From NCBI GenBank assembly GCA_963621825.1, contig CAVFFP010000004.1:71718-135717 (forward strand): DNA of 64,000 bases, in the 5' to 3' direction. Shown piece after piece: positions 4,349-63,028 of this stretch; positions within the stretch are counted from its first letter, which is position 1, and each line of letters starts with the position of its first letter. A program made the translations under genes and the position numbers. The notes beneath the pieces are model-generated. The model was not told the origin of the DNA. It saw only the letters and a program-made list of their open reading frames with translations, and did not search any database. This DNA comes from a bacterium (lineage in GTDB: Bacteria; Bacillota_I; Bacilli_A; RFN20; CAG-288).

Positions 4349-4784
4349 CGATCCCGAAATCATGAGGGAAATCATTGTCGATAACTATCAGAACCCGAGA
4401 AACTTCAAAGAAGTGGATGATAATAGATATATCACAATCCATATGGACTCTGCTTCCTGCATTGATGACATTTACATTCAAGTCCTTTTTGAAGGCGATG
4501 TGGTAAAAGACTGCAAGTGGCACGGAAAAGGTTGTGCCATCTCTACTGCCTCTACCTCTATCATGAGTGAGATGATATTAGGAAAAAGCAAAGAGGAAGC
4601 CTTAGCTATGATGGATGAGTTTAATAAGATGCTTGCCGGCCAGGATTTCAACGAAGAACTCCTTGGCGACGCTATCTGCTTTGTCAACGTCAACAGACAG
4701 CCCTCTAGAATCACATGTGCCAACATCTCTTGGCGCGGATTGCAGAAAGCCTTTTTAGAAGAGGAGAAGAAAGAACATGAATGA
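4332..4784 (+). CDS. sufU: SufU/IscU-type sulfur transfer/scaffold protein
   Basis: 150 aa. NifU/IscU-like conserved Cys and Asp positions (DSASCID ... GKGCAIS). GGAGGA RBS 8 nt upstream. Overlaps the sufS 3' end. Confidence 0.8.
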
Positions 4785-6186
4785 GAAGGAGAAAGAACTG
4801 CTCGATCAGGATGATCGTGCCAAATATGAGTTCCGCGATAAGGATATCGCCATCTATCGTACTCCGAAAGGATTGAACGAAGATATCGTCCGCGAAATCT
4901 CACAGATTAAGAATGAACCGGATTTCATGTTGGAGTTCCGTCTGAAATCCTATCGTGAATTCGTCAAACATCATCAGCCCCATTTCGGACCGAATCTCAA
5001 TTGGATCGATTTCCAGGATTACACCTACTATACAAGAGTCTCTGAAAAGATTGCTCAGGACTGGAAAGATGTTCCGGATGAAGTCAAAAACACCTTTGAC
5101 AAATTAGGCATTCCGGAAGCGGAACAGAAGTTCCTTTCCGGTGTCACGACGCAGTATGAGTCGGAGGCTGTCTATAGCAACATGCTTAAGGAAGTTACGG
5201 ATAAGGGGGTTGTCTTCCTCGACACGGATACAGGACTAAAAGAATATCCGGAGCTTTTCAAAAAGTATTTCGGAAAACTTGTTCCTCCTCAGGATAACAA
5301 ATACGCTGCTTTGAACTCCGCAGTCTGGAGCGGTGGCAGTTTTATCTATGTCCCCAAAGGGGTGAAACTGGATAAACCGTTACAGTCCTATTTCCGTATC
5401 AACAATAAGAGAAGTGGACAGTTTGAAAGAACTCTCATCATTGTGGATGATGATGCTGAACTCAATTATGTTGAAGGCTGCACAGCTCCGATGTATTCGG
5501 AGGAGTCTCTCCATGCCGCCATCGTTGAAATCTTTGTTGGAAAGAGAGCGAAGATGCGTTATACCACAATCCAGAACTGGTCGAACTCCATTCTGAATTT
5601 AGTCACACAGCGTGCCATTGTCGATGATGATGGATTGATGGAATGGGTCGATGGAAACATTGGATCCAAGCTCTGCATGAAATATCCATGCTGTGTCTTA
5701 AAAGGCGAAAGAAGCAAAGGCTCTGTCATCTCGGTCGCCGTTGCCGGAGAAGGACAGTTCCAGGATACGGGTGCCAAGATGATTCATTTAGGTAAGGAAT
5801 CCTCTTCTACCATTATCTCCAAGTCTATCGCCAGAAATGGCGGAACGAGCAATTTCCGCGGTCAGATCCACATTGCAAAGACTGCTCTCAATTCCAAAGC
5901 GCATGAAGAGTGCGATACCTTGATTCTTGATGATCACTCCTATTCGGATACGATTCCGAACAATGTCGTTGAGAATGCGTCCTCTTATCTCGAACATGAG
6001 GCAAGCGTATCTCAGATCAATGAAGATCAGCTCTATTATCTCATGAGCAGAGGCTTGAATAAGGCTAGTGCGACTCAGATGATCGTCATGGGATTCTTAG
6101 AACCGTTCAGTAAGGAACTTCCGATGGAATATGCGGTAGAACTGAACCAGCTCATTAAATTTGATATGTCAGGTTCGATAGGATAA
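4777..6186 (+). CDS. sufB: Fe-S cluster assembly protein SufB
   Basis: 469 aa. C-terminal [11 protein letters not shown] motif. Last gene of the suf operon. Confidence 0.85.
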
Positions 6187-6188
6187 TT

Positions 6189-11360: not shown

Positions 11361-11487
11361 AATCAAGCCGATAGATTTTAGCACTTTATAGGATAAAGAG
11401 TAAGACGTGGAAAGCGATATCTATGTAACTTTTGAAATGTTTCAGTTTTCGATTTCTTTTTCGCTTCTCAGATGCTAGAATGAAGGC

Positions 11488-12153
11488 ATGAAAAAGCTAG
11501 GAATATTTCTGTTTTTATCGCTGTATCTAATGATATCTATCATCCACCTTTCCTTTTGTGCAAAGGATAACAGTCATATTGTAAGAAAAGTGACAAAACC
11601 GTTCCTTCTTTTATCCCTAGGTTTATCCCTTTGCTTTTATGTTCCGCAATATCCGTTGATTATCATCGCATGCTTTTTAGCATGTATTGGAGATATCCTG
11701 TTGATCTTTGAAAAGAGCAAAGTCCTTTTCATCATTGGTGCGACCGGTTTTGGTGCAAGCCATGTTTTGAATGTTTTGACACAGATTCAGATCATCGGAC
11801 ATCCCTTATCCTGGTGGATGTATCTACTTGTCTTTCTTCCTATCCCGTTATCTGGAATTCTTGGTTATTTGTTTATTCAACGAGAAACGTTCTCCTTATT
11901 CAAGTTCTCGTTCTCGATGTGTCATATCATCAATGTCATCTTTACTATTGTCATGATGGCTAGTGGAACCTTTGCAAGCGGAATGATGATCTTTTTCGGA
12001 TATCTTTCCTGTATCATAAGTGACATCATATTGGCAAAGAACCTTGGAAAAGAAGAAAAAGGTGACGTCAATTTTGCAATTATGCTCACATATCTTTTCG
12101 GACAGCTTCTGACCTACTTTGGCCTAGCGTTCGGTGTACTGAATGTATTCTAA
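11488..12153 (+). CDS. Integral membrane protein, YhhN-family-like (lysoplasmalogenase fold)
   Basis: 221 aa, about 7 TM helices. Motifs CIGDILLIF and GFGASHVLN resemble the YhhN-family GD and AxSH positions. Confidence 0.4.
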   Translation: MKKLGIFLFLSLYLMISIIHLSFCAKDNSHIVRKVTKPFLLLSLGLSLCFYVPQYPLIIIACFLACIGDILLIFEKSKVLFIIGATGFGASHVLNVLTQIQIIGHPLSWWMYLLVFLPIPLSGILGYLFIQRETFSLFKFSFSMCHIINVIFTIVMMASGTFASGMMIFFGYLSCIISDIILAKNLGKEEKGDVNFAIMLTYLFGQLLTYFGLAFGVLNVF

Positions 12154-20504: not shown

Positions 20505-21590
20505 TTATCCGTTATAGATGGAAATATCGATATATTTTTCTTCGTCGCTGCTTCCGGCGTGAGTGGATTTCATATGTGGGACATCATAGGCTTGAAGGAA
20601 AGATGAACTATCCTTCGAAATAAGAAGGAAATCTCCTAATAAGGAACGGAATTCTGTGCATTCTTCTCCATATCCGAAGATGTGATTTTCAATCGTCTCT
20701 TCTTTGGAAAGAATATAGAAATGCTCCCCGTAGTGTTTTATAGCTGCTTGCTTGAACTGCTCTTCCATTCCCTCCTTAACATAAAAGAAGGCTGCTCTTG
20801 GTTCACAGGCAAAATGCTTGATTCTTAAAGCAGAATAGAAATCGTCATATTCATCGATCTTATAGTCTTTGATATTGAGATGACCGTGGTCTGCAATGAC
20901 GATGAATAGGGTATCTTTGTTTCTTTCGGAAAGTTCTTTGATGCCATCATCAAATTTCTGAATGATAGAAGCGACCTCATCACTTGAAACTCCGTATTTA
21001 TGGAGAGAGGAATCCGGTTCACAGCTATAAGCGTAGACAAAATCATTCTCCTTAAGACAGAGTTCTGTCTCCATAAGGAAAGTCTCTGGTTTCTGATCCT
21101 TCAATAAGAAAGATTGAATCTTAGAAGTACGGATTCCCTTTTCTTCCATCTTCGTGAAGATGGTCTCATAAGGTAACAGGGAATAAGTGGATTCCGGTGT
21201 TGTCTCAATCGGTTCCTGAGCGAAAGTGGATGCAAACATAGTGACCGCTCTTTCGTACTGTGGGAACTGTTCCGTCCAGCCTAACCAACCTGTCTCAGAC
21301 GGAAATAAATCTGTAATCAGAGCAGTAGTGGCAGCTACCGTTGTCGGTGGGAAGACAGATGTGATCTGAGTTAGATAATGGTCATTGATATCTTTGCATT
21401 CTTTATGATAGACGCTTCGGATATAACTTCCTAAGCCATCCAAAAGAACAAGGCAGATTTTCTTATCTGTTTTGTCTAACACTTCATCTAGTGCAGGTAA
21501 GGAAGGGTGATTTGGTTTTATCTTATAATGTCGAAGCAAGGAAGAGGAGAGATTGACAAGGCAATTGTTTTTATCAAATAGTTTTTTCAT
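20505..21590 (-). CDS. Alkaline-phosphatase-superfamily protein (type I phosphodiesterase / nucleotide pyrophosphatase-like)
   Basis: 361 aa. LVLLDGLGSY metal-ligand region and ADHGH motif typical of the AP superfamily. Confidence 0.55.
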   Translation of the reverse strand: MKKLFDKNNCLVNLSSSLLRHYKIKPNHPSLPALDEVLDKTDKKICLVLLDGLGSYIRSVYHKECKDINDHYLTQITSVFPPTTVAATTALITDLFPSETGWLGWTEQFPQYERAVTMFASTFAQEPIETTPESTYSLLPYETIFTKMEEKGIRTSKIQSFLLKDQKPETFLMETELCLKENDFVYAYSCEPDSSLHKYGVSSDEVASIIQKFDDGIKELSERNKDTLFIVIADHGHLNIKDYKIDEYDDFYSALRIKHFACEPRAAFFYVKEGMEEQFKQAAIKHYGEHFYILSKEETIENHIFGYGEECTEFRSLLGDFLLISKDSSSFLQAYDVPHMKSTHAGSSDEEKYIDISIYNG

Positions 21591-21616
21591 GAGGATATCT
21601 TAGCCTATCTTCAAAG

Positions 21617-28535: not shown

Positions 28536-28738
28536 AATTGTCTCCTTAGTAAATGATCGGTATCCATTTTAAATGTTTTCTCGTTTTATATCTATGTATT
28601 TGATAAATCAAATAAAAGTAGAACAGCAAAAGCGCTTTTTCATAAAAGTTTTTTAATGAAATGAGAGAAAACACTTGAAGTGATGTTGAAAATATTATAT
28701 ACAATACAAGTTTTAAGGTTCAATTAAGGAGAATGTAT

Positions 28739-30871: not shown

Positions 30872-32757
30872 TGAAAAAGAATTGTATTGGATTATCGTTT
30901 CTTGTTCTGTCACTAGTCGCCTGTCAAGGTGGAGGAGATTCCTCCGCCTTGAAACCGACGGAATCCGCAAATGCGGAGAAAACGGAGACAACAGGCGAAA
31001 CAACTTCTCAACAAAAAGAGAAACTTGAATTTGAACCAGCTAAGACAATCAGTAATCTTTTCGACTATCTGAATACAACAGGAAGAGAAATAGAGAATAC
31101 GGATGGTATCATCTTTGACAGAAACTATTATTCCTATGAGGTCGGATATTATACGTTCAATACGATAGAGAAGAGTGAGAATGGTGAGTCTTTTGATAAT
31201 GATTCCTATTTCGTTTATGGAACGGAGTCTAAGACAACCACTTATGACTATAAGGATGATGTCGATAAGGTAGAAGACTACTATATGTGCCTGAATCAGT
31301 TGGATGGAAATGACTACTACTCCATTGTGGATTATGATGATGGCAAAGATAGAGATACGGCAAACAAAGAGACAGTTTTGGTGACAAATAGGGATTCCTA
31401 TTTGGCAAAGACGAATCTTAATGCTTTGGATTCCCTTTATACTTTCTATAAATCGAAAGTCTCCAAGAACATCATCAAAGGCGTCGATGATATCACACCG
31501 AATATCACGGATAAAAATACGGTTGAGTATCATATCGCTCAGGGATGGGAAGAGACAATCGGCGATTACAAGTATAAGTATGCCGCTATCATCGATCTTT
31601 CTTTGGATTACAAGGGAAGACTGACCAAGTATAGTTATAACTTCAAAGAATATCAGCCCTCTACGGAAGAAGGCGGCAATGATTTTCTTCTCAGTGAAAT
31701 CAAGGATGAAGTCGAAATCCAGTTCGGAAATAAGATCACATACGATTATTTCGAAAAGGTCCAAAATGGTGAAAAAGCAATTGATCCTCTTGATTACTTC
31801 ATGACGGATTACACTCCGGTATTGTTGTCCTGGGATGGTGTCGGAACAGAGAAGACTAAAGAGGATGCTCTTAGTTTCCCTATCAACATGTATGTTGAGG
31901 CTGAGGCCACAGAGATTGTTCCTGAAAAGGCTTTGGATACGAAGTTGACTGTCACTGATAGCACGGATAAAAGTGTTATCTCTGTCACATCTTCTGGTAT
32001 TGTAAAAGCAGTCGGATTAGGTGAAACCACCCTTACCATTCAATCGGAATCCGGTGTCACTACGAAGATGAATGTCAAGGTTGTCTCTCCTGCTTTACAG
32101 GAGATTGTCGCTAAAACTTATTCTACGTATCATTTCAAAGGGGATACCGATACTCTCTATATCTATAAGACTCCTTCGAATTCCTTAGAGGAGATTGAGG
32201 TCGTCTCATTGACAGAGGATGTCATTGAAGTTGTCAAAGACAAAGATGGTGATTATGCTTTGCATAACATCGGAGTCGGAGAAGGAACCGTCGAAGTAAG
32301 AAGCAAGACGAATCCTACAGTGAAGTGCACGGTCTCTTATTCTGTCGTAGAGAAGAAGACAGTCGAAGAAGTCAAAGCCAATGTCGTCGGAACATGGGAT
32401 GGAGACCTTCCGAATACTAGTGGTACAGGGATGGTAAAGGATGCCGCTACAGTTATCTATAATGATGATGGCACCGGTAGCTTCACTTTGAATAGTTCCG
32501 ATACGGGTTACACCTTTGAAGTCGGAAAAGCCTATCCATTTACCTATACCTTCTTAGAAAACGGAAGATATGTGGATAGACCTGTCTCCCTTACGATGTC
32601 TACGATTACTTTGGATCATGGACAGGTTGTCTGGACGTATTCCGCAAATGCTGCTGACTTCTATTACACGGGCGAGAACGCAAATATCATCTTCGCAACG
32701 GGAAATTCAGAAGAATACGGCGCAATGGTGCAGTTATCTGCAAGACGTGTCGCTTAA
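30871..32757 (+). CDS. Surface lipoprotein with two Big_2-like domains
   Basis: Lipobox LSLVACQGG. Its start overlaps the previous stop by 1 nt (TGATG). Repeated VTxxDxxVISVTSSGxVKAVGLGETTLT-like segments. Confidence 0.7.
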   Translation: MKKNCIGLSFLVLSLVACQGGGDSSALKPTESANAEKTETTGETTSQQKEKLEFEPAKTISNLFDYLNTTGREIENTDGIIFDRNYYSYEVGYYTFNTIEKSENGESFDNDSYFVYGTESKTTTYDYKDDVDKVEDYYMCLNQLDGNDYYSIVDYDDGKDRDTANKETVLVTNRDSYLAKTNLNALDSLYTFYKSKVSKNIIKGVDDITPNITDKNTVEYHIAQGWEETIGDYKYKYAAIIDLSLDYKGRLTKYSYNFKEYQPSTEEGGNDFLLSEIKDEVEIQFGNKITYDYFEKVQNGEKAIDPLDYFMTDYTPVLLSWDGVGTEKTKEDALSFPINMYVEAEATEIVPEKALDTKLTVTDSTDKSVISVTSSGIVKAVGLGETTLTIQSESGVTTKMNVKVVSPALQEIVAKTYSTYHFKGDTDTLYIYKTPSNSLEEIEVVSLTEDVIEVVKDKDGDYALHNIGVGEGTVEVRSKTNPTVKCTVSYSVVEKKTVEEVKANVVGTWDGDLPNTSGTGMVKDAATVIYNDDGTGSFTLNSSDTGYTFEVGKAYPFTYTFLENGRYVDRPVSLTMSTITLDHGQVVWTYSANAADFYYTGENANIIFATGNSEEYGAMVQLSARRVA

Positions 32758-42103: not shown

Positions 42104-42862
42104 TCAGTATATCAACGTAATGTTGTTTTCTTTGCAAAATTCGATATATTTGTCGTCTGGTTTCTTGTCTGTGATCAGGTAATCGACTTTAGAAAGCGGA
42201 CATGTCAAAAAGAATCCTTTCTTTTCAAATTTTCCGGATTCGCATAAAAGAATGGTACAGTCGCTGTTCTCCATCATTTTCACTTTGATTTCTGCCTGCT
42301 CCTGAGTAGTTTCCATGACACCATAATCCAAATTCACACCAGTACAGGACATGATTGCGTAATTGCAGTGTATTCTAGACAGTGTGGATATGACCATGTT
42401 TCCGACGACGGATACGCTCCTTGAATTCAGATAGCCAGGCAAAAGGAGAACCTGAGAACTGGTTTCCTGTGATAATAGTAATGCGCCTTTTACACCATTG
42501 GTGACGACGTTTAGGTTGTGGCAGCTCTTGAAGAAAGGAACCAAAAATGTGACAGTACTGGATGAATCTAAGAAAATGGAGGAATTGTCTTTGATTAATT
42601 CGGAGCATAACTCACACATATATCTCTTTTCTTTGATGTTTGTGTTTTCACGGAAGAGAATGGAAGATTCCTCATTCGGTGATTCCTGAAGGATGACGCC
42701 TCCGAATGTTCTCTGGACTAGGCCTCTTTTTTCCATATGTGTGAGATCTCTTCGAATCGTTGCACTGGAAACGTAGAGAAGCTTGGTTAGCTTTTCAACA
42801 GAAATGGATTTTTTCTCCTTGAGAATTTCGAGAATCTTTTCTTGTCTCTCTAAATCGTACAT
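42104..42862 (-). CDS. DeoR-family transcriptional regulator (RhaR-like, sugar catabolism)
   Basis: 252 aa. N-terminal HTH (ISVEKLTKLLYVSSATIRRDL) and a DeoR C-terminal sugar-binding domain. Divergent from rhaA. Confidence 0.8.
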   Translation of the reverse strand: MYDLERQEKILEILKEKKSISVEKLTKLLYVSSATIRRDLTHMEKRGLVQRTFGGVILQESPNEESSILFRENTNIKEKRYMCELCSELIKDNSSIFLDSSSTVTFLVPFFKSCHNLNVVTNGVKGALLLSQETSSQVLLLPGYLNSRSVSVVGNMVISTLSRIHCNYAIMSCTGVNLDYGVMETTQEQAEIKVKMMENSDCTILLCESGKFEKKGFFLTCPLSKVDYLITDKKPDDKYIEFCKENNITLIY

Positions 42863-43163
42863 GATTTCATTATAATTTATAATTGATAAAAATCAATCAC
42901 ATATTGAAGTACAAATCGAACAAAGAATGCAAATTTAGGCATTATGTAACATATAACGTGATTATATATAATTGAATGTGATTGAAATATGAGTGCTTTA
43001 AGATTGTTTATCTATGCCACAAACAAATATATAACGAATCATTCCTATCGAATATAATAAAAGAACCATAAGGGAACAGCTGACTGGTTTTATTCCATCA
43101 AAGAATGATGAAGAGCTAACTAGGTTCAGCGAACGAATGTGGTTAAAAAGGAGAAAACAAAGT

Positions 43164-52145: not shown

Positions 52146-53273
52146 TTATTTTGTGATCAATGTGATGAACTCGTCGATTTCGTTATCGGTCATTCCACCG
52201 CTACGAAGATAGTTTTTAGCACCTTCCGAATAGGAGGAAAGATTCTTATTTCCGCTATCCTCACTGCCTACGATACAATCGATGAAGGAGTCGAAGTATA
52301 AAGAGACAATGGCATCATATTTGTCTTTTGTCTCTTCTTTGCTGATCTTGTAGTAGTTCTTGTAAGTCATCATATAGTCAGCGCACATCTCGTCGTAAGT
52401 GGCACCAGCCAAGGCTTCGATCAGAGTGCAGACAAACCCGGTTCTGTCTTTTCCTTCCATACAATGGATATAGAAAGGAGAAGAGTTCTTGCTCATAAAT
52501 TTGAAACCATCTACAACACTCTTCTTGTAATCATCTCTTGTATATCCAGAACCCATAGCCAAGAGGATGATGCTTTTATCTTCGAATAATCCTTTTGTGT
52601 AGTCGGAAGAGAAATCATCCTGGGCTAGATAGTTATTCATATCGTCATCACTGTCGGCTAAATCGATGATGGTCTTGACATTGTTCTCCTTTAAAAGAGT
52701 ATCCGTGTATTTGGCTCTGTTTCTGCTATTGTCTACAGGACTTGCACCACGGAAAATATAATTCTCCTTTAAAGCACCTCCAGTCAGAGAACGGAAGTTG
52801 ACAAATTCTTCATCCGAAGCGTACTGGTTTCTGTCTAAGGAATAACTTTGGCTTAATGCCTCTTGTGTCGAAATGTATTTCTTCTTCTCTACGAGTTTGA
52901 TGTCTACAGTGTCAGTGTTCTTTAAGGATAAGTCATCCCAGATTCCGATATTGTTGAATGTGATGGAGATATTGGTGCTGGACGGGTATCCGACAATGAC
53001 GGGATTTCCATTTTTGACATAGTATCCGTTGTAGTAGGGAACATCCTCTAACGTTTGTCCGTTGCTGAAGGATACGGTACAGCTATCTCCGAATGAGAAA
53101 CCTAAGGCGTTGAAGTCATCGATAGAGATATCGACAACTGCAGATTTGAATTTGCTGTCTTCGAAGATGGAGGCTTTGGATAAGATCACCTCTTTGTTTC
53201 CGTTACAGGAGAAAAGAGAGAACGAGAGAAAGGCAAAGGAGAAAAATGACGTGAGTTTCTTTGTGTGTGTCAT
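52146..53273 (-). CDS. Lipoprotein with protein-tyrosine/dual-specificity-phosphatase-like domain (Y_phosphatase3-type CX5R)
   Basis: Lipobox LFSCNG. P-loop HCMEGKDRTG (HCxxGxxRT/S). Overlaps the upstream TetR gene stop/start by 4 nt. Confidence 0.65.
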   Translation of the reverse strand: MTHTKKLTSFFSFAFLSFSLFSCNGNKEVILSKASIFEDSKFKSAVVDISIDDFNALGFSFGDSCTVSFSNGQTLEDVPYYNGYYVKNGNPVIVGYPSSTNISITFNNIGIWDDLSLKNTDTVDIKLVEKKKYISTQEALSQSYSLDRNQYASDEEFVNFRSLTGGALKENYIFRGASPVDNSRNRAKYTDTLLKENNVKTIIDLADSDDDMNNYLAQDDFSSDYTKGLFEDKSIILLAMGSGYTRDDYKKSVVDGFKFMSKNSSPFYIHCMEGKDRTGFVCTLIEALAGATYDEMCADYMMTYKNYYKISKEETKDKYDAIVSLYFDSFIDCIVGSEDSGNKNLSSYSEGAKNYLRSGGMTDNEIDEFITLITK

Positions 53274-53788
53274 AAGCTTTGTCCTTGGAATTTATTCTGG
53301 ATGTCGATGAAAGGCTTAGATACTTCTTCGATAGGATCTTTGCAATCTCCATCTAACCAATGAATTAGTACGTTGTATAAAGCACCTGCGACAAAATAAG
53401 CGAGATATTTATCTAGCTTGACAGGAAGATTATCTAAGAATTCGGTGGAAAGGAAGTTGAGAAGGACACCATCCAGTTTTGCTTTTCGTAAGCATTTGTT
53501 TGCTTTGATGTTGGACTTGAAGAAGAGGAAAAGTGCAAGAATGGTGACATCGTTGTTTTCTGAAGAATATCCGGAAGAGACATTGACCGTATTCATGAAA
53601 CGGTTCTTAGTCAGTTCAAAGTAACGGATGACGATATCTTCCTTTGTCTTGAAGTAGCGGTAATAGGTCACACGGCTCACACCTGCTTTCTCAACAATCT
53701 CTGTGATGGTGATATCATCAAAGCTTTTTTCATCCATAAGTTTCAGTAATGCATCGGCAATCTTATTCTCAACATCGTTCTTCTTCAT
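53270..53788 (-). CDS. TetR/AcrR-family transcriptional regulator
   Basis: N-terminal HTH ITITEIVEKAGVSRVTYYRYFKTKEDI. 172 aa. Confidence 0.8.
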   Translation of the reverse strand: MKKNDVENKIADALLKLMDEKSFDDITITEIVEKAGVSRVTYYRYFKTKEDIVIRYFELTKNRFMNTVNVSSGYSSENNDVTILALFLFFKSNIKANKCLRKAKLDGVLLNFLSTEFLDNLPVKLDKYLAYFVAGALYNVLIHWLDGDCKDPIEEVSKPFIDIQNKFQGQSL

Positions 53789-53959: not shown

Positions 53960-54484
53960 CTAATTGGCTTTTCCGGCATCGCCGGTTCCGATGTACTTGG
54001 AATCTCCGAAGCCAAGGATGAGGACGAAGATGAGAGGGAGTAAGACAAGACCGACTGTGAATCCAGCACCATGACCGAAGGCTTTGGAAAGCTTGTGCAT
54101 GAGAAGGATTTCAACGACTAAGAGAGCAATCATGATGATGTAATGACAGATGTCTAAGATTTTAATGTAACTGTCAGCCATATTATTGTAACTGAAGACG
54201 GCGCTGAGTGTGGAGAGAAGGATGCTAGCGAAGATGAAGGCTACCATGCATGCGAAGTACTTCTTTCCGGAAACGCACTTGGCGAGGATGTAGATGTTGT
54301 AGACGGGAATTAAGACCTTCCAACCTTTTTCACCCATCTTTGTGAACATCTTCCAACAGGCGATGCAGTAGAGAAGGTAGATGAATAAAAGGACACCGAA
54401 GTAGACGGCCAAGAAAGCAATAAGGACGGCGCTTCCTTCCAGTTCAGGAAAGAACTGCTTAATGTAGTCTAACTGATTTGACAT
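53960..54484 (-). CDS. Small integral membrane protein (174 aa), function unknown
   Basis: Three to four hydrophobic helices. Conserved-looking GEKGWKVLIPVYNIYIL segment. No family assigned. Confidence 0.5.
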   Translation of the reverse strand: MSNQLDYIKQFFPELEGSAVLIAFLAVYFGVLLFIYLLYCIACWKMFTKMGEKGWKVLIPVYNIYILAKCVSGKKYFACMVAFIFASILLSTLSAVFSYNNMADSYIKILDICHYIIMIALLVVEILLMHKLSKAFGHGAGFTVGLVLLPLIFVLILGFGDSKYIGTGDAGKAN

Positions 54485-54746
54485 ATGGACATTCTCCTTT
54501 CTAGATATGTTTGATTTATACTAATCTCCCGTATATCAATTGTCAACAAACCGCCATCCTTTTGTTTAGAATCTTGATGGAATAAGGGTATGAAATAGCA
54601 AAATATTGAATTAACTTTAAAAAATAGGATGCCTCTTGATATCGAAACGGATAGAGAACCTATACGCTTAGACAGAAGAGAAAAAACATCTTGTCATATT
54701 CAACAATAAACTACTCTTTGATTTCCGTTTTTGTTAAACTATAGGA

Positions 54747-56630
54747 ATGAAAAAGTTTAAGTCTTTTCTTGGATTTTTATCTACCTGCTTTGTACTTGCC
54801 TCGTGCAGCCAAGGTTCATTAAAGAAAAGCACATTCAAATATCCTCAGGCATCGGAAAATGACTATGTCGGCACCGCCTATTTCAGTGATGACTATTTTA
54901 TTGAGGATTCCACAGTATATAACAACTCTTTGGCGACTTGCTCTATCGCATTTGCCATGTCCAGTTTTGCAAGCAATGTCAATAAGGATAATCCTACTCA
55001 TCGATATCTGAATGCGGAAGCGTTTCTGAAAGAGAACGGTTTCACGGATATCGACGTCAATTCCTACTATAAAGTCAAATCCACAACCGATTCTCTGGGT
55101 ATGATCTTCGGTCAGAAGAAGATTGGCAATGAAACTTTGATTGCTGTCGGTTTAAGAGGCCAGAACTATGAGATGGAGTGGGCTGGGAATGTCACAGTTG
55201 GTGATGGAAAAGAGAATCCACAGCATAAAGGCTTTTATGATGCTTCGACAATCTATCTCGATAGCCTTAAGGAGTATGTGAAAAACAGTTCCGTAAAAGG
55301 TGAAGTGAAGTTATGGACAGTCGGCTATTCTAGAGCGGGTGCTTCCAATAATCTTGCAATCGGAAGATTAGATCAAGAGATTTCCAAAGGAAACAACATA
55401 TTCGATAATCAGATTTCACTCAAGAAAGAGAATATCTACTGTTATTGTTTTGAGCCTCCGATGGGAGCCTCTTACTTAGAGGAGATATCACCAAGAGCGG
55501 ATATCTATTCCAACATTCATAACATTGTCAACAGCAATGATCCTGTTCCAATGGTCGCTATGAAAGAGTATCGCTTTACAAGATATGGAGTGGATTACTA
55601 TCTTCCTGATCAGGTCAGAAACAAGGATTTCGATTCTCTTCTTCATCCTGTCCTGACGTTCTATAATTCGATGGACAACCATGAGAACTTAGGCGAATAC
55701 TATCTCTCTAAGTTTGTAAATGGAGGAAGCTTCTTCTCTAATTCGAATTCGCAGATGACAGTGGATGAAATCGGCAGCAACAAAATCAACTGGACAAGTG
55801 GACTTTATTTATCGGAACTGATATCTAGTCTTGCGACAATCGGTATTACATCGAGAGAGGAATATGTAGAGAAACTGCAGACTGGGCTTAGAAACATTTT
55901 CCAAATCGTATATAAGAACGGGTCACCGAAGTTCTCGTTTATGACACTTGGTGTTTCCCTTCTTTCCTATCTTCTTAACTCGACCAATGTCGATATTCTG
56001 ATCAATAATCTTCTCCATGATACGGATGCTTTTGTCAAAGACTTCATCGTTTTGTGTCACCGAGTCATGTCGGATTTAGGCATGGATATTTCCCCCTCAG
56101 ATCTTTCTTCCTGTATCGAAGGCCTTCTTTCTGCTCTGGCTAAAGTGTTTCTGAACAACTTAGAGCTTTTCTTTACTCTTCTTAGCACGGACAATGTTCA
56201 TTCTCTTGCCGCGGCTCATTATCCTGAACTGTGTTTTGCCCATTTGATGAGTCAAGATGTGAATTACGGATCTCATCCGAAGGAATACAATAGCGATGGA
56301 AGCTACTATTATCTTGAAGTTAACGATGTTACAGATAGCACCTTTGTCAGAATCGAGGACAATACTGGAAAGAGCGTGGCCTCTTTATTCAATGGTGTTT
56401 TGGATAAATCCGGTGACATTACGTATGGTTCTAATGGTTCTACCTTCTTTGCTTATATCCCTGTGGAAGTGGAATATCATATCGTTATGAGGGATGCTTC
56501 CTCTTATCATCTTACCTATTTCGACCAGAGACAGGAGAACATGGTCTCCTATAAGGACGGAGATGTTCCTGCTTCGGAAGAAAAAGAAATCGTGACGGAG
56601 ACGTATCCGGAGAAAAAGGCAACGCTATGA
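54747..56630 (+). CDS. Lipoprotein, putative alpha/beta-hydrolase (lipase class 3 / DUF2974-like)
   Basis: Lipobox VLASCSQ. Candidate nucleophile elbow G-Y-S-R-A-G-A. Fold assignment is tentative. Confidence 0.45.
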   Translation: MKKFKSFLGFLSTCFVLASCSQGSLKKSTFKYPQASENDYVGTAYFSDDYFIEDSTVYNNSLATCSIAFAMSSFASNVNKDNPTHRYLNAEAFLKENGFTDIDVNSYYKVKSTTDSLGMIFGQKKIGNETLIAVGLRGQNYEMEWAGNVTVGDGKENPQHKGFYDASTIYLDSLKEYVKNSSVKGEVKLWTVGYSRAGASNNLAIGRLDQEISKGNNIFDNQISLKKENIYCYCFEPPMGASYLEEISPRADIYSNIHNIVNSNDPVPMVAMKEYRFTRYGVDYYLPDQVRNKDFDSLLHPVLTFYNSMDNHENLGEYYLSKFVNGGSFFSNSNSQMTVDEIGSNKINWTSGLYLSELISSLATIGITSREEYVEKLQTGLRNIFQIVYKNGSPKFSFMTLGVSLLSYLLNSTNVDILINNLLHDTDAFVKDFIVLCHRVMSDLGMDISPSDLSSCIEGLLSALAKVFLNNLELFFTLLSTDNVHSLAAAHYPELCFAHLMSQDVNYGSHPKEYNSDGSYYYLEVNDVTDSTFVRIEDNTGKSVASLFNGVLDKSGDITYGSNGSTFFAYIPVEVEYHIVMRDASSYHLTYFDQRQENMVSYKDGDVPASEEKEIVTETYPEKKATL

Positions 56631-58717
56631 AAACATCATTCAACGAGGTCCTTTATCAAAAGAGAATGGAAAAAGGCATGTCCAAAAAGGCATTTGCTAA
56701 GTTTTTAGGTGTCCCAACACTCTTCTACCGATATTATGAAAACGGATATGTCAAACCAGGAAAGAAATATATTGAACGTATTTCGGACAAACTTGACATC
56801 GATTATTCACTGAATTTTGTCGGTGCTGCCTCTTATCCGAGCGAACTTCCGGAGCGGATGACACGATTTGAAAAGTGGTATCGAACATTATTATCCAAAC
56901 TTTGGGTCAAGATTGTCTTTGTCGTCTTCCTTCTTCTCTCTATCGCGACAATCGGTGTCAGCTTCTCAAAGAACAACGAGATCACAACTCATGCGGATCA
57001 GTTCTACAGCGAGAAATATCTTCAGTTTATCAGTGAGGTACGAGAAAACGGTACGATGACCTTTTCTCTTCTTCATGAACTGACAAGACCAGAGATCCAT
57101 ATCTCTGATGACGAGAAGTATGTGTCGATATCTGCGTCCAGTGAGACATTTGCACTCCGCGATATCAATGCCTATATCCGATATAAAGGGGATAACAGCA
57201 GTCTCTATTATATTGTTCCGAATAGTGCAACTGGTGCTTTGTCTTATCTCTCTGTTCAGTATATAGACTATGTCACCTTGGAAAAGTATATTTCTACTTT
57301 CAATATTGTCGATTCTAAATTTGTCTTCTCTAATGAAATCCGTATGGAAGACGGAAATACATTAGACGCCGCTTCTGATTTATATCCAACAATAAAAGAG
57401 AAGATGTTAAGCAAGATTGATCATGTGAATTCCGACTTTAACACTTTGATCAAGGAAAAGACAGGTATGGAATATGATTTCTATGGCGAACTGCTTGTCG
57501 ATCATAAAGAGGGGGCAAATAAGAACCTCTTTGCTGAGATCATGTCCTTGACTATGGGTATCATCGGTATCGGACTTACCGGACTATTCCTCTTTGCTAT
57601 CCTCTTCTCCTTCTTCTTTGGAATCAAGGAAGAAAAGAAGAAACTGGAACTTGAAAGAGTAGATGCGAAAGTTAATGATGAGGGCTCTGACAATGCAAGA
57701 GGATCGCCTGAAAAAGTCACCGCAAAACAGAAAGAGAATATAGCGATGATGAAAAAAGATATTCCTTTCTTCCCCTTCCTTCCTGAAACCGTCTTGGAAA
57801 TCATCGGTATCTGTCTTATCGCGTTAGGATCGGTTCGAATCTTCCTGAACCTTGAGATGCTCTTCTATAGCTCTGGTGTCACACAGGAAATGTATAACCA
57901 GACCTCTACGAATCTCTTCCGTCTATTCACGGTCGGCATGTTCTTACTCTACTTCATCGACTTCGATATCTTCTTGGACGATAGCCGAAGCTTAAGAAAC
58001 TTCTTCCTCTATGGAATTGTATTCTTCGGTCTCTACTTCATTGAATGCATATTGATTGAATATCTCTCAAAGACAAGAGGACTTATCTTCATATTACGAG
58101 ATTATTATGTTGTTCCGAATAACTTTGGTACCATCTCCTGTTATTTCGGTATCATGTTCTTCCTCTTCTATACTCCAAAGGGAATCAATACAAAAAAGAA
58201 GACAGTCATCTTTAGACTTCTGTCTTTGATACCAATCGCATGGATTCTTGTCTCATCTGTCATCTTTGAGAATTACAAAGCCTTCGGATTGGAATTCAAT
58301 ACCTGGCAGCTTTACTTCTTCGATTCAGAAAGACCGCAGTTCTCATTGCTTTGTGTCTCGTATCTTGTCGGACTCTATCTGATAAGACTTTACTTCAAGA
58401 AAAAATACGGAGAAGAAGCGGCAAGAAGATTCTTCAATGGAAATAGATTCTACTACATCAAGAATATCTTCATCTGTCTGATTGTTACTGCGATTGCTGT
58501 AAACGAGTACTGCCTTAGAAATTACACAAGCAACATCAAAGGTATAGGTAGCTATTATCAGATTGTTTACCTGATTCCATTGCTCCTTTTCTATCATCCA
58601 CACTTGGGAAAACGTTGCAAACCGTTAGATTACTTCACTCTGATTCTGTATGGTCTCTTCTTCAGTTTTGGATATCTCTTAGCTGCTATTCTTATCCTTG
58701 CCATGGTATTAAGATGA
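56627..58717 (+). CDS. XRE-type HTH domain fused to a large polytopic membrane domain (membrane-anchored one-component regulator candidate)
   Basis: N-terminal LYQKRMEKGMSKKAFAKFLGVPTLFYRYYENGYVKPGKKYIERISDKLDIDY (HTH_XRE-like). After that: 1 TM, an extracytoplasmic region of about 180 aa, then at least 8 TM helices. ATGA overlap with the upstream lipoprotein gene. Confidence 0.55.
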   Translation: MKTSFNEVLYQKRMEKGMSKKAFAKFLGVPTLFYRYYENGYVKPGKKYIERISDKLDIDYSLNFVGAASYPSELPERMTRFEKWYRTLLSKLWVKIVFVVFLLLSIATIGVSFSKNNEITTHADQFYSEKYLQFISEVRENGTMTFSLLHELTRPEIHISDDEKYVSISASSETFALRDINAYIRYKGDNSSLYYIVPNSATGALSYLSVQYIDYVTLEKYISTFNIVDSKFVFSNEIRMEDGNTLDAASDLYPTIKEKMLSKIDHVNSDFNTLIKEKTGMEYDFYGELLVDHKEGANKNLFAEIMSLTMGIIGIGLTGLFLFAILFSFFFGIKEEKKKLELERVDAKVNDEGSDNARGSPEKVTAKQKENIAMMKKDIPFFPFLPETVLEIIGICLIALGSVRIFLNLEMLFYSSGVTQEMYNQTSTNLFRLFTVGMFLLYFIDFDIFLDDSRSLRNFFLYGIVFFGLYFIECILIEYLSKTRGLIFILRDYYVVPNNFGTISCYFGIMFFLFYTPKGINTKKKTVIFRLLSLIPIAWILVSSVIFENYKAFGLEFNTWQLYFFDSERPQFSLLCVSYLVGLYLIRLYFKKKYGEEAARRFFNGNRFYYIKNIFICLIVTAIAVNEYCLRNYTSNIKGIGSYYQIVYLIPLLLFYHPHLGKRCKPLDYFTLILYGLFFSFGYLLAAILILAMVLR

Positions 58718-58774
58718 ATAGACAAATCTATATAAAATAGATAGGTTGTCTGCTATAGAAGTGCCGGATCATAC

Positions 58775-58800
58775 AAAAAGCCCTCATCGGAGGGCTTTTT
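58775..58800. terminator. Bidirectional Rho-independent terminator
   Basis: Stem aaaaagccctc / gagggcttttt with loop atcg. Lies between convergent genes. Confidence 0.65.
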
Positions 58801-58807
58801 AATATCA

Positions 58808-60574
58808 TTATTTGATTGCAGTTTCGAGCTTATCGACATCGTAGAAGGAAGTGTAATCGATAGCGATATCGACATCCTGTCCACCATCGACATTCTTTCC
58901 GTTAGAAGTGATGGAATAGTTAGAGGACATCGCCCAAATTCCACCATCGACAGCAACACTCGGAATGACGGCACAGTCGCCGCCACCGGATTTCTGACCG
59001 ATGATTTTGGCATAGCCTTTGTCTTTTGCAATACAGGGGAATGCGTTCGCACAGGAGAAGGAGAAACCAGAGGTTAGGATATAGAAGTTGTATTTTCCAC
59101 TGTAAGAATCATTGTCAGCTGTGCTTCCGTCAAGGTTGTTATCATAATTGACTGCTTCTGTGATTACAGCACCTGTCTGCGTGTTGGTGACAGTGATTTC
59201 AATCGGATCATCGGTTAAGAAGGATAAGGCTTCTGCCAGTGCCTGAGCGGCGCCTCCGCCATTGAGACTGATGTCGAAGATGACGTTTTTGACAGAGGTT
59301 TCTGTGGAAATTTTCTGGAAGGAATTGTAGAAGTTTGCGAATGTGCTGATTGTATCCTCCGCAACATTGTCTTTTGACAAAGTCGTAGCATGCGTGTTAA
59401 AGGAATCAAAATGGATGACAGCAGTTTGTTTAGAAGCGGAAAATTCCAAAAGTTCCGTGTCTTTTTTGCGGAGTGCGGTTAATGTCGTATACGTCTGCAT
59501 TGTGGTCGTGTATCTTGTATCATAGTTGAGTATCAATGCCATAAGACCTTTGTCGATTGTATAGTCGAATGTACTTGTCAATCCACGATGATAGAAGATA
59601 GTGTGTCCGCCATCATGGAATATCTCAATGACCGCTTTTGCCAGTGCTGCATTCGCAACATCGGAATCCGTGGATAAAAGTCCTTCCTTCAATCCGAGTT
59701 GAGATAACTTCTGATCGAGGTCAGAGATATTCAAACGAGAGAGGTGACCGTTGTAGTTCTCCATCTCGAAGAGGAAGCTTCCGTAGAAGTAGTTCACATA
59801 AGAGGGAGTGCGTGTCTTATTGCTGAGGCATCCGGAATAGAACATCTTTCCGAAGTTATTGAGCTCCTTGGTCGTGCTATCGACAAAGCCAGTAGGTGTG
59901 ACGAGATAATAGTCATCTCCATTGAATGCGCTGCGCATGAAAATCGGAGAGAGAACGATGTTCTCTAATACAGCGAAAGGCGCATAGATCTTGTCGTTGT
60001 AGGAGACAAGCTTCATGGAATAACGGTTTAAATCAAAGGTGATTTCTTTTCCTTTTGTATAGACCGTCTTTGCTGTATCTAGCTTTGCGATGCTATCGGT
60101 TGCGGCATCCACCATATCGATGGGGGTCTTTAAGGATGATGTGTAATTGGTGAACTGATCTAGATCCGATGTGGTAAGCTTGTTGTTCTTTACATCGAAG
60201 ACAAGGGAGGTGTCAGAGAAACGATTGGTTACAACACCATTAGAGACATCGAAGAAATCCGGTGAGTTTTCCATCAAGGATTTGGAGAAGAAGTTGACGA
60301 AGAAATCGTTCAGCTCGATGTAAGGGACGTCTCCAATCTCTGTGAAGAAGACAGTGGGAAGCGTGACTTTCGTCACTTCATTGAAATAGAATTTTGCGTT
60401 ATCGAGTTTCTTTGAGATGTGATAGTCGGATGTTGCTGAGGTAGAAGAGGTTTCTCTTTTCTGTGTATCACTATTTCCGGTTGTCTGACTATCTGTTGTT
60501 ATCGAATCTTTGTTGGACTGACAGGAGATGAGTAGGAAGGGGATAAAACTGATGATCCATAATTTGTGTTTCAT
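58808..60574 (-). CDS. Peptidase S41-like (C-terminal processing protease family) lipoprotein
   Basis: Lipobox LLISCQSN. VIFDISLNGGGAAQALAEALSFL matches the S41 (DxRxNxGG) region. Confidence 0.6.
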   Translation of the reverse strand: MKHKLWIISFIPFLLISCQSNKDSITTDSQTTGNSDTQKRETSSTSATSDYHISKKLDNAKFYFNEVTKVTLPTVFFTEIGDVPYIELNDFFVNFFSKSLMENSPDFFDVSNGVVTNRFSDTSLVFDVKNNKLTTSDLDQFTNYTSSLKTPIDMVDAATDSIAKLDTAKTVYTKGKEITFDLNRYSMKLVSYNDKIYAPFAVLENIVLSPIFMRSAFNGDDYYLVTPTGFVDSTTKELNNFGKMFYSGCLSNKTRTPSYVNYFYGSFLFEMENYNGHLSRLNISDLDQKLSQLGLKEGLLSTDSDVANAALAKAVIEIFHDGGHTIFYHRGLTSTFDYTIDKGLMALILNYDTRYTTTMQTYTTLTALRKKDTELLEFSASKQTAVIHFDSFNTHATTLSKDNVAEDTISTFANFYNSFQKISTETSVKNVIFDISLNGGGAAQALAEALSFLTDDPIEITVTNTQTGAVITEAVNYDNNLDGSTADNDSYSGKYNFYILTSGFSFSCANAFPCIAKDKGYAKIIGQKSGGGDCAVIPSVAVDGGIWAMSSNYSITSNGKNVDGGQDVDIAIDYTSFYDVDKLETAIK

Positions 60575-60778
60575 GGTTTGTTTCCTTTCTAGGGTTATTC
60601 TATTTTACTAAAAATCAACATATAATGAAAGATTCATTTAATGTTGTCTGAGGATGGAAAATCAACTTTTAAGTAAGCGCTTTACTGAATGCGGAGAATT
60701 AATAGACAATCATTATTCTTTAAACCAACCTTAAAAATATGATATATTAGCGCGTAATTAATTAATAAGGAGAGAATG

Positions 60779-63028
60779 ATGTCAAAATTCAAAACTGCGA
60801 TTTCATTCGGTCTTTCTTTCTTATTGTTTGCTACAGCCTCTTGTTCTGGAAACGATACCTCTTCTCATATCAGTGAGACAGAGAAGAATCAGACTACAGG
60901 ACTGACTGTCACAGCACTGAAAAAAGAATATGACCAATACGAGACTTTCCTCTATTCTTCATTGAAAGTCGACAAACTCTATTATACCGATGGCACATTG
61001 ACAAAGACGGAAGAAAACTTCAAGGATTTCACCGTCATTGACAAAAATGGAACTGTCATCAAAGACAAGGATAAGATCACTTCCGATATCTTCGGAGAAG
61101 AGGTTGAATTCTATGTTCAGGCTACAGGATGCGAAAAGCAAAGTTTCAAACTGACAATCAACAGAGCCAAGAAGTTCTCTCAGACTCTGAAGGTCACTGC
61201 TCCTAGTAAGAGCCAGTACAAGATTGGTGATAAAGTTGATCTGACAGGTCTTACCGTTCAGGTGGAAACCAGTTACTATACTGGAACGGACAACTATAAG
61301 AACAGAATCGATACCTTGACAGATGATGAGTATACGATCGATGTCAACGGAGATTCCATCGATTCCTTCACTGTGGATGGATATGGAGTCTATACGGTCA
61401 ACATCGGATATTCCTCCTTCTCCTCAGTCGGTCAGGAAAAGCTTCTCCATTCCGAGTTCTATCTCTATTGTGCTCATGAGTCGATCTCGACAGAACCTGT
61501 CGATTACTCCGACAGAACTGATAACGATTGGGAAGATGACAATCGCGAAGTCACCATCGAAATCAAGAACACGAACAAGAACAATACTGACAAAGGTTAT
61601 CTCTCTCCGGATGAGATAGCCACGCCGAAGAATCTCTTCGACTATGGACAGAATAATGCACAGAACTGGCAGTATTCTCCTGGTACCGGTAATGTTCCTT
61701 TCCTGATTATCCCTGTCGTCATCCCTGGCTATGATAGATTAGCCACATCTGACTTATGGAATACGATCAACAACGCCTTCTTTGCGGATAGCAACGACAT
61801 CCCATTTGAATCCTTGAGATCCTATTACTCTAAGTCCTCTCATGGGAAACTCAATATCACAGGAACGGTCACGGATTACTTCTTCCCTGAGAGGGAGACA
61901 GAAGACTTCAGCACTTACTTCGACTTTGCAAATCCGACCAAGCATATGGAGGATTTCATCGAGGAGGCGCTTGACTGGGCTAAGAACACCTATGATCTCG
62001 ATCTTACCAAATACGATAGCGATCATAACGGAATCATCGATGGAGCCTGGTTTGTCTATGTCTATGATCAACAAAGCACGGACATCATGAATTTCTGGGC
62101 CTATTCTTCTACAACGGGAATTGTCGGAACTCCGGAAGATCCGAAGATCAACAACTTCGGATGGTTAGGAAGCACGTTCTTACTCAATTCCGCAGGCGAA
62201 GACAAAGGAAATGACGGACATGTCATCATCCATGAATCCGGACATATGTTCGGCTTATCCGACTATTACTCCTACAATCAGACAACGAACGACCGCTATG
62301 CTCCGTTAGGAAGAGCGGATATGATGGATAACAACTGCTCCGATCAGAATCCTTTCTCTAAACTGATGATGGGATGGCAGAAGCCCTATGTCGTAACCGG
62401 TAACTGCACCATCACACTGAAAGCGGATCAGAACTTAGATCAGTGCATCCTCATCCCTTATGATGATCTTGATTATTCTTCCTCCTCTTATCAGAAAGAT
62501 GATCTTACGGATATCAACCTCTTTGATGAATATCTTCTCATCGATTTCTATACGGACAAGAATCTGAATGAGAAAGGATATGAGCAGTATTCTGTCGACT
62601 CCATCAAAGGATATGGTGTCAGAATCTATCATGTCGATAACCGTCTTGCAAAAGTTCTGACTAGAAGAAGTGATGATACCTATGAATCCGAACTCGTTTC
62701 TCCGGAAGAGGGTCTTAGACTCTTAGGAGAGAACAATCATGACATCATCAAAGCAATCAGCAATACGGAAAGCGGAGAAAGATGTGAATCGACACGCTTT
62801 GGACTTCCTTCTACTGCAAATTATTATGATGAGATTCGTCTCATCTATGCGGACAAGAGTTATGCCTCTTACCGCAATTATGCGAAGACTTCCTCTCTCT
62901 TTGCTCCCAATGGAGACCTCTCAGTCAATTCTACTTTCAGCTTAGAAGACTATAAGAGTCAGTTCGTCGATGGAAAGTTTGATTCCGGAAAAGACTTCAA
63001 TTATACCGTGAATATCTTGAACTACTAA
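60779..63028 (+). CDS. Zinc metalloprotease lipoprotein, immune inhibitor A (M6)-like
   Basis: Lipobox FATASCSGN. HExxH in VIIHESGHMFGLSDYY, close to the InhA HEFGHxLGLPDEY pattern. Alternative ATG at 60776. Confidence 0.6.
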   Translation: MSKFKTAISFGLSFLLFATASCSGNDTSSHISETEKNQTTGLTVTALKKEYDQYETFLYSSLKVDKLYYTDGTLTKTEENFKDFTVIDKNGTVIKDKDKITSDIFGEEVEFYVQATGCEKQSFKLTINRAKKFSQTLKVTAPSKSQYKIGDKVDLTGLTVQVETSYYTGTDNYKNRIDTLTDDEYTIDVNGDSIDSFTVDGYGVYTVNIGYSSFSSVGQEKLLHSEFYLYCAHESISTEPVDYSDRTDNDWEDDNREVTIEIKNTNKNNTDKGYLSPDEIATPKNLFDYGQNNAQNWQYSPGTGNVPFLIIPVVIPGYDRLATSDLWNTINNAFFADSNDIPFESLRSYYSKSSHGKLNITGTVTDYFFPERETEDFSTYFDFANPTKHMEDFIEEALDWAKNTYDLDLTKYDSDHNGIIDGAWFVYVYDQQSTDIMNFWAYSSTTGIVGTPEDPKINNFGWLGSTFLLNSAGEDKGNDGHVIIHESGHMFGLSDYYSYNQTTNDRYAPLGRADMMDNNCSDQNPFSKLMMGWQKPYVVTGNCTITLKADQNLDQCILIPYDDLDYSSSSYQKDDLTDINLFDEYLLIDFYTDKNLNEKGYEQYSVDSIKGYGVRIYHVDNRLAKVLTRRSDDTYESELVSPEEGLRLLGENNHDIIKAISNTESGERCESTRFGLPSTANYYDEIRLIYADKSYASYRNYAKTSSLFAPNGDLSVNSTFSLEDYKSQFVDGKFDSGKDFNYTVNILNY

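Follow-up and report, generated by a model that had tools for sequence, protein, structure and literature searches.

Which gene does a membrane protein with a repressor-type helix-turn-helix (HTH) serve when its neighbor encodes a lipase-like lipoprotein, and is it a regulator at all? The question is raised by two genes, here called A and B, in a 64,000-nucleotide stretch of DNA (the window) from a bacterium of the lineage Bacilli_A, RFN20, CAG-288 (contig CAVFFP010000004.1, positions 71,718 to 135,717). An earlier sequence-only reading had claimed two open reading frames (ORFs) overlapping by ATGA, and the coordinates match exactly when read from the sequence (...gctATGAaa...). All positions are collected in Table 1. 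We propose, at a confidence somewhat short of even, that B controls the lipase (A/B) module as a transmembrane one-component regulator. We favor this reading because the HTH resembles a DNA reader, its fusion to the membrane part is obligatory, the gene pair is mostly divergent, and the topology is suitable. We keep it tentative because no operator was found, and because the membrane domain has less the look of a sensor than of a catalytic or transport module.

We examined the layout of B by hydropathy and by AlphaFold, using 43 homologues for the model (mean predicted local distance difference test score, pLDDT, 81; predicted template-modelling score, pTM, 0.74). Both gave a first transmembrane (TM) helix, about 190 residues outside, a second TM helix and nine more, in agreement with the earlier claim of one TM helix, about 180 residues outside and at least eight further helices. 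The loops assigned to the cytoplasm carry 27 Lys/Arg and those assigned to the outside carry 9, which places the HTH inside, and the 190-residue domain and the C-terminus outside. A basic tether of about 30 residues, holding a conserved S-Y-P-x-E-L-P motif (Y70, P71), joins the HTH to TM1. Mean pairwise identity among the 43 homologues was 0.51 for the HTH, 0.32 for the outside domain, 0.15 for the linker and 0.52 for the membrane domain.

The HTH was recognized by the Pfam model HTH_3 (aa 9-59, E 2.5e-7, 31.1 bits, above the cut-off of 23). Its model has the five-helix Cro/C1 fold and superposes on DNA-bound repressors, with structural matches to P22 c2, the 434 repressor and SinR. A word-indexed search returned 70 clusters of close homologues (33-100% identity, 510-759 aa), nearly all of them 650-760 aa long with a query coverage of 97-100%. 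HTH models are recorded in most of these clusters and other Pfam domains in none, and the sole name given by the source is 'XRE family'. We also searched a profile of the membrane domain (aa 370-696, 12 sequences) against 1.84 billion representative proteins at E<=1e-3, and this matched 271 proteins. Among the best 150 of these 271 matches, nearly all are 640-760 aa long and carry the domain at their C-terminal end; the shorter ones appear to be fragments. Distant family members too start with an HTH-like segment, and HTH_3 matched 35 of 54 diverse members, being both the best-scoring and the most frequent HTH model. Since the HTH is found in the close homologues and in these 35 members, the fusion is obligatory for the B family.

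In an alignment of 188 family members, N6, R13, E38, G40 and Y41 of the HTH are 94-98% conserved. Polar or basic residues that vary between members occupy the exposed positions 30, 31, 33 and 35 of the recognition helix, Lys/Arg recurs at positions 20, 21, 25, 43, 46, 47 and 51, and the core and turn residues are fixed. This column pattern looks like that of a working, specificity-diversifying DNA reader, as an indication and not as proof, and the domain would thus be predicted to bind DNA. As the homologues are full length and the HTH residues are conserved family-wide, the HTH is translated and under selection. This rules out a gene-call artefact with the true start downstream of the HTH, so that the fusion noticed by the sequence-only reading is real and forms one conserved unit.

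We further examined whether A and B stay together in 52 loci (50 from species-representative genomes and 2 from metagenomes). An A homologue was found directly beside the B homologue in 51 of them, down to 33% identity; in the sole exception (L036) the sequence ends within B, so that the side where A is expected is absent from the record. The pairs occur in three gene orders, i.e. 40 divergent (A leftward, B rightward), nine A-then-B and two B-then-A. Five further paired loci were seen (L055, divergent; L073 and L075, A-then-B; L071 and L076, B-then-A). This co-conservation is far beyond chance. Most divergent spacers measure 50-90 bp, and ten loci have one of 131-155 bp; a divergent pair with a short spacer is the classic layout of a regulator and its target. 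When the flanking ORFs were clustered, A and B alone were conserved across the loci and the next best cluster was present in 9 loci, so a third conserved gene in the module was rejected. Because adjacency survives repeated rearrangement at identities down to about 25-33%, the linkage is strong evidence of a functional tie between A and B.

Judged by the record titles that can be trusted ('Bacilli bacterium', 'uncultured Mollicutes', 'Erysipelotrichaceae', Bacillales UBA4682 and UBA4694), the hosts of the paired loci would be uncultured Bacilli of gut and rumen. Among the records L003-L031, many are 'cleanbin' metagenome-assembled genomes from a single study, titled Alistipes, Prevotella, Bacteroides, Faecalibacterium, Azospirillum etc., and these names look unreliable. 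The module orthologues in the 'cleanbin' records are 50-88% identical, show the same synteny and are of the Bacilli type.

The partner, gene A, starts with a signal peptide and a lipobox that fits the pattern [LVI][ASTVI][GAS]C. Lipase_3 matched aa 134-272 of A (E 1.6e-3) with 18.8 bits, under the cut-off of 22. Eighty homologues of A were detectable, of which about 36 carry PF01764 in precomputed annotation, and about 56 of the 80 are A-like in size (about 600-650 aa). More distant homologues bear SLH, VWA or Ig-like surface domains, and the A family is therefore one of cell-surface hydrolases. Across 32 homologues, down to 24% identity, G193, S195, R196 and D265 are invariant and H491 is kept in at least 90%. 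Such conservation is what one would look for in an alpha/beta hydrolase of class-3-lipase type with a Ser-Asp-His triad; we assign the triad by analogy, and A would be expected to be enzymatically active. The Ser and Asp motifs resemble what we take to be the GxSxG and D-x-V-P motifs of Lipase_3.

A shares with the class 3 lipases (PF01764) the nucleophile elbow (G-x-S-x-[AG]), an Asp motif of D-x-V-P type and the conserved His. Unlike them, it stays below the Lipase_3 cut-off and has a lipobox anchor, a largely helical insertion of about 225 residues between Asp265 and His491, and a beta-rich C-terminal extension. A sequence search of the PDB with A returned no relative.

How the module is transcribed in the window could be read from a few signals. 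No Shine-Dalgarno sequence was seen upstream of A, and clear AGGAGG-type sites lie upstream of most other window genes. Since A has a -10 box just 6 nt before its ATG and lacks a Shine-Dalgarno sequence, unlike most window genes, the A-B transcript is probably leaderless. The TGTTAAACT block upstream of A is kept in the four closest co-directional orthologous loci; a generic promoter scan gave a result not above chance. At the other end, a perfect A5-GCCCUC-loop-GAGGGC-U5 terminator, common to B and the convergent S41 peptidase gene, is the end of the A-B unit. The RNA of 58710-58815 (106 nt) folds at -27 kcal/mol (z = -3.2), and none of 200 shuffled sequences folded equally well. No Rfam family was found at 54300-58900. 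Sub-threshold matches to the small RNAs SpF51 and rsmX at 58691-58800 probably reflect the terminator hairpin alone.

The sequence-only reading had also proposed that B is translationally coupled to A. This holds for the window, where translation of B would rely on the ATGA overlap; it does not extend to the related loci, since the A-then-B relatives are gapped by 10-266 nt between the tblastn matches and the divergent order prevails among the relatives. Two back-to-back extended -10 boxes occupy the A-B spacer in about 40 divergent loci. On the B side, ATG(A/T/G)TATA(C/A)T lies 6-10 nt upstream of the ATG of B, and on the A side TGCTACAAT lies on the opposite strand, 5-7 nt upstream of the ATG of A. 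No Shine-Dalgarno sequence was seen for either gene in the aligned spacers. Thus, A and B both look leaderless in these roughly 40 divergent loci (A-B spacers, L005-L052).

If B is a regulator, A and B would form a two-gene module of a lipid-anchored surface hydrolase and a membrane regulator. The basic HTH would hang in the cytoplasm on its tether of about 30 residues, and the outside and nine-helix domains would serve as the input module. A cue at the membrane or envelope, most plausibly a lipid or a product of the hydrolase A, would change the state of the membrane domain, and this state would set whether the HTH engages the promoter region of the A/B module. In the window, the module would be made as one transcript, running from the -10 box upstream of A through the ATGA-coupled B to the terminator. 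Our observations cover the architecture and topology of B, its HTH fold, the conservation of the triad in A, the strict linkage of the genes and the limits of the operon; DNA binding, the target promoter, the nature of the signal and the activity of A as an enzyme are what we infer.

Several observations weigh against this regulator proposal. An exact search for inverted repeats found none shared among 32 divergent A-B spacers. Inspection of the aligned spacers by eye and footprinting upstream of the co-directional orthologues yielded only promoter boxes, and the conserved blocks in the spacers and upstream of A coincide with the -10 boxes. Co-transcription of A and B in the window and in the co-directional loci would suit partner proteins needed in similar amounts better than it would a regulator with its target. 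In conservation, the membrane domain equals the HTH (0.52 vs 0.51), and it has a charged cytoplasmic face, which looks like an active site or docking surface more than a variable sensor. Such acidic, basic and His residues on the cytoplasmic side are more typical of an enzyme or a transporter than of a sensor. HTH_25, which we take to be the RodZ-type HTH model, was weakly matched by 18 of the 54 diverse members (best E 5.7e-4). Finally, distant subfamilies with the B architecture are not beside any A gene. The idea of a membrane-tethered one-component regulator is thus borne out as to fusion, topology, conserved HTH and the published definition of such regulators (discussed below), and no candidate operator was found in the spacers and upstream regions.

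The A-less subfamilies have varied neighbors (Table 1), and no common partner emerged for them (a HAD phosphatase three times and DegV once). Conversely, no B-like neighbor was found for the distant SLH-type A homologues. We conclude that the pairing belongs to one large subfamily and not to the architecture as such. The proposed link of B to the co-encoded hydrolase is supported by adjacency in three gene orders, but it does not cover these distant members, which have no lipase gene.

We then considered what the two other domains of B resemble. Neither the outside nor the membrane domain matched any Pfam family, even at E<=10 (12 close and 54 diverse members), or any NCBIfam family. PADLOC matched the HTH of B and nothing else. 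Sequence searches of the PDB with B gave HTH matches alone, and the membrane-domain profile gave none at E<=10. The homology searches thus placed the C-terminal membrane domain in no known transporter or enzyme family. The outside domain is modelled as a helix, 7-8 antiparallel strands and then helices, and it is the least conserved folded part. Foldseek related it weakly to the p32/gC1qR fold (E 0.02-0.065) and, against the PDB, gave nothing beyond the HTH and this p32-like match. The one extended fold match of the membrane domain was to a transmembrane acyltransferase (TmAT).

The invariant polar residues of the membrane domain lie mainly on its cytoplasmic face. They comprise KKD378 (K376/D378), P-F-x-P-E387, E391, FLLYFID445-F-D447, D452-x-R454-x-x-R457-N458, R530, K612-N613, Y-H657-P-H659-x-G-x-R663 and D668. 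Invariant motifs on the outer face are P-N498-N-F-G and S-E568-R-P. The wider family retains a subset of all these, i.e. E387, N498, P517, R530, P536, N613, P651 and Y-x-P-H-x-G-x-R.

These residues bring in the main alternative, which overlaps with the regulator proposal and which we rate as unlikely while taking it seriously: B may act chiefly as a membrane enzyme or as a transporter, in biochemical partnership with A, its nine-helix domain being a very divergent TmAT (AT3/HGSNAT) fold. An acyl group from a cytoplasmic donor would cross the membrane, and A would complete the reaction, adding the group to an extracellular lipid or glycan or removing it from one. A would then have the role that the SGNH domain has in OatA and OafB, and the HTH would be an add-on coupling the state of the enzyme to its own expression (a 'trigger enzyme'). 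The high conservation of the membrane domain agrees with this, as do the co-transcription and coupling in the window and the adjacency in all three gene orders, which fit partner proteins. In addition, R454-S-L-R457, at the cytoplasmic start of the third helix of the domain and invariant in 43 close members, has the position and form of the TMH3 RxxR motif, which contacts coenzyme A in TmAT proteins (PMC12423673). AT3 domains are also typically fused to or paired with an extracytoplasmic domain of serine-hydrolase fold (PMC12423673).

However, no family of the Acyl_transf_3 clan was matched at E<=10 by the same 12 close and 54 diverse members, and hhalign against single-sequence E. coli OpgC and YeiB gave probabilities <1.5%, no better than unrelated controls. 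The domain counts 9 helices and not 10, and A has a lipase_3 fold and not an SGNH fold. The DxxR motif of TMH1 is absent: the window protein has K-K-D378-I-P-F and the family consensus is D-I-R, which is gone in distant subfamilies, where the RxxR motif and the Asp cluster are lost as well. Because there is no DxxR, the helices are nine, and neither hidden Markov models nor hhalign gave a signal, we treat the TmAT resemblance as a lead and not as membership. A bolder form of the idea has only an outside chance in our view: the nine-helix domain would be an unrecognized, highly divergent branch of the transmembrane acyl-transfer fold, and A and B would each supply part of a machine that transfers acyl groups or remodels lipids on the cell surface of gut Bacilli poor in wall. 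The HTH, again as in a 'trigger enzyme', would report the catalytic state directly to its own promoter, so that one polytopic protein would both catalyze and control transcription. Regulator and enzyme readings can coexist.

Two further explanations account for fewer features. In the first, which we consider improbable, B would serve A as membrane anchor, activator or foldase, with an outside domain that binds, holds, folds or gates A and an HTH that provides expression feedback. This would be loosely comparable to Lif, the membrane-anchored, all-helical lipase-specific foldases encoded beside the Pseudomonas and Burkholderia lipases. It agrees with the strict adjacency, with co-transcription in the window, and with a folded B domain of about 190 residues on A's side of the membrane. 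This domain is also the fastest-evolving folded part of B, as expected of an interface with a diverging partner, and the helical insertion in A could be a regulated lid (as judged from residue spacing). But the divergence of the outside domain does not track that of A once phylogeny is controlled for (partial r 0.09 vs 0.65 for the membrane domain, in a weak, phylogeny-dominated mirror-tree test), and the conserved nine-helix domain and the HTH are left unexplained. Moreover, the outside domain is alpha/beta and the Lif foldases are all-helical, and the SLH-anchored distant A homologues do without a B-like neighbor.

The second, a RodZ-like scaffold whose HTH would bind a cytoplasmic (cytoskeletal or division) protein instead of DNA and organize envelope enzymes including A, is suggested by the RodZ-like order of the N-terminal third (HTH, basic tether, TM, outside domain), the weak HTH_25 matches, the aromatic nature of several exposed HTH positions in the window protein (F33, Y36, Y37) and the housekeeping neighborhoods of the A-less subfamilies, yet we find it very improbable, as RodZ has a single TM helix and DUF4115 and binds MreB, and B has ten TM helices more than that, neither DUF4115 nor any other C-terminal domain of RodZ (window protein and 54 members), HTH_3 as its best model, a divergent pairing with one specific hydrolase gene that is not RodZ-like, and, as a weak point, no MreB gene among the ORFs examined around the module (the whole window was not scanned for MreB). 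The earlier remark that B is unlike RodZ is therefore sustained by its 11 TM helices and the absence of a DUF4115 match.

Returning to the regulator proposal, we compared B with described systems. A transmembrane transcription regulator (TTR) is defined as a DNA-binding domain with at least one TM segment in one protein (PMC10269533), and by this definition B is a TTR. The HTH is the commonest DNA-binding domain of TTRs, and 27% of them have more than two TM helices, with a maximum of 22 (PMC10269533). B shares with the TTRs the presence of a DNA-binding domain and membrane helices in one polypeptide, but its two non-HTH domains match no described family and it is tied to a lipase-like lipoprotein gene. 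Known co-factors of TTRs, such as ToxS and TcpH, are small membrane proteins and not hydrolases like A.

BcrR of Enterococcus faecalis, a one-component transmembrane bacitracin sensor (PMC3968067; Gauntlett 2008, as cited in PMC10269533), is the closest characterized analogue of B in HTH type and orientation. Both have an N-terminal cytoplasmic XRE-type HTH followed by membrane helices, with no separate kinase, and the target genes of BcrR adjoin the regulator gene, comparable to A beside B. BcrR spans the membrane four times, lacks a large outside domain and targets an ABC transporter. By description, B differs in having 11 TM helices, a 190-residue outside domain and a conserved membrane domain of 320 residues. 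Full-text literature searches found no published description of the B family. HTH-membrane fusions are common, so this class of architecture is known; the novelty lies in the family itself, with its two undescribed domains, its narrow lineage and its strict partnership with a lipase-fold lipoprotein.

The surroundings of the module were also examined. Four lipoprotein genes with Ser/Ala-Cys lipoboxes lie within 11 kb and make up a small cluster of surface hydrolases. The TetR regulator near A has a TetR_C_8 domain, and TetR_C_8 regulators were also seen beside or near distant SLH-type A homologues in unrelated contigs (L057 7160-7801, L058 3828-4400 and L059 1-298). This protein could be a second, conventional regulator linked to the A hydrolase family. 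In a minority of window genes, a -10 box, often TGn-extended, stands 5-8 nt upstream of the start codon and a Shine-Dalgarno sequence is lacking, pointing to leaderless mRNAs. No Pfam match at E<=1e-5 was obtained for the large ORFs 12363-15215 (950 aa), 28733-30871 (712 aa) and 30871-32757 (628 aa). Base 30871 is common to the second and third of these ORFs, i.e. they abut or overlap; we rejected them as a paralogous A/B-like module, since they showed no similarity despite their B- and A-like sizes.

Table 1. Positions of the A-B module, its signals and its neighbors in the window, and of genes next to B-like genes in loci without A (numbered within the respective locus)
Feature	Position	Strand	Remark
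Gene A	54747..56630	+	ORF of 627 aa; lipoprotein with class-3-lipase-like alpha/beta-hydrolase core
Gene B	56627..58717	+	696 aa; membrane protein with 11 TM helices and N-terminal HTH
ATGA overlap of A and B	56627..56630	+	ATG of B 56627-56629; TGA of A 56628-56630
Extended -10-like box TGTTAAACT	54732..54740	+	6 nt (ATAGGA) upstream of ATG of A; read from sequence
A, signal peptide and lipobox V-L-A-S-C20	54747..54806	+	translation MKKFKSFLGFLSTCFVLAS-C20; homologue consensus LxSC
A, codon of putative nucleophile Ser195 (G-Y-S-R-A-G)	55329..55331	+	invariant column
A, Asp265 codon (N-D-P-V-P)	55539-55541	+	invariant column
A, His491 codon (A-A-H-Y-P-E)	56217-56219	+	nearly invariant column
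B, aa 1-62, XRE/Cro-C1-type HTH	56627..56812	+	cytoplasmic; net basic, 13 K/R vs 7 D/E
B, TM1, aa 93-114	56903..56968	+	hydropathy, model
B, outside domain, aa 115-304	56969..57538	+	acidic alpha/beta (31 D/E vs 18 K/R); pLDDT mostly 85-93
B, TM2, aa 305-333	57539..57625	+	back to cytoplasm; hydropathy, model
B, linker, aa 334-375	57626..57751	+	charged, cytoplasmic, predicted disordered; pLDDT <50 at aa 335-365
B, C-terminal membrane domain, aa 376-696	57752..58714	+	9 helices
Bidirectional intrinsic terminator hairpin AAAAAGCCCUC-AUCG-GAGGGCUUUUU	58775..58800	both	between B and convergent S41 peptidase gene
Tyr-phosphatase-family lipoprotein	52146-53273	-	Ser/Ala-Cys lipobox
TetR regulator with TetR_C_8 C-terminal domain	53270-53788	-	1 kb upstream of A
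DUF5684 membrane protein	53960-54484	-	divergent from A, 262-bp spacer; kept in closest relatives only (6 loci)
S41 peptidase lipoprotein	58808-60574	-	convergent with B; Ser/Ala-Cys lipobox
M6-like metalloprotease lipoprotein	60776-63028	+	Ser/Ala-Cys lipobox
Leaderless-looking start of A	54732-54749		
Leaderless-looking start of gene 11488..12153	11465-11490		
Leaderless-looking start of gene 42104..42862	42863-42885	-	
Leaderless-looking start of gene 20505..21590	21591-21610	-	
L053, B-like gene			beside glycerol-3-phosphate-dehydrogenase-like operon
L054, B-like gene			beside QueA and PK/PFK genes
L062, B-like gene			beside flavodoxin-like gene and hexapeptide-repeat acetyltransferase
L063, B-like gene	4001-6148		start overlaps by 8 nt the 3' end of DegV/FakB-type fatty-acid-binding gene (3163-4008)
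L064, HAD-family phosphatase	6150-6860		directly after B-like gene
L065, HAD-family phosphatase	6110-6898		directly after B-like gene
L066, HAD-family phosphatase	7082-7873		directly after B-like gene

Membrane-anchored one-component regulators are common in genomes, and the signal or mechanism is known for few of them. The B family is a tractable case, with 271 representative proteins and, among the best 150, nearly all of one architecture. The lipase-like gene, attached through three gene orders, is an obvious candidate for both target and source of the cue, and B offers two folded domains without described relatives. The hosts are uncultured, Mollicutes-like Bacilli of the gut and rumen, whose lipid acquisition is poorly understood. 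If the membrane domain is catalytic, it would represent a new branch of transmembrane acyl-transfer enzymes, and B a polytopic enzyme fused to a repressor-type HTH. If instead B senses the products of lipid breakdown, the pair would provide a simple model of how these bacteria match the output of a surface hydrolase to the needs of the membrane.

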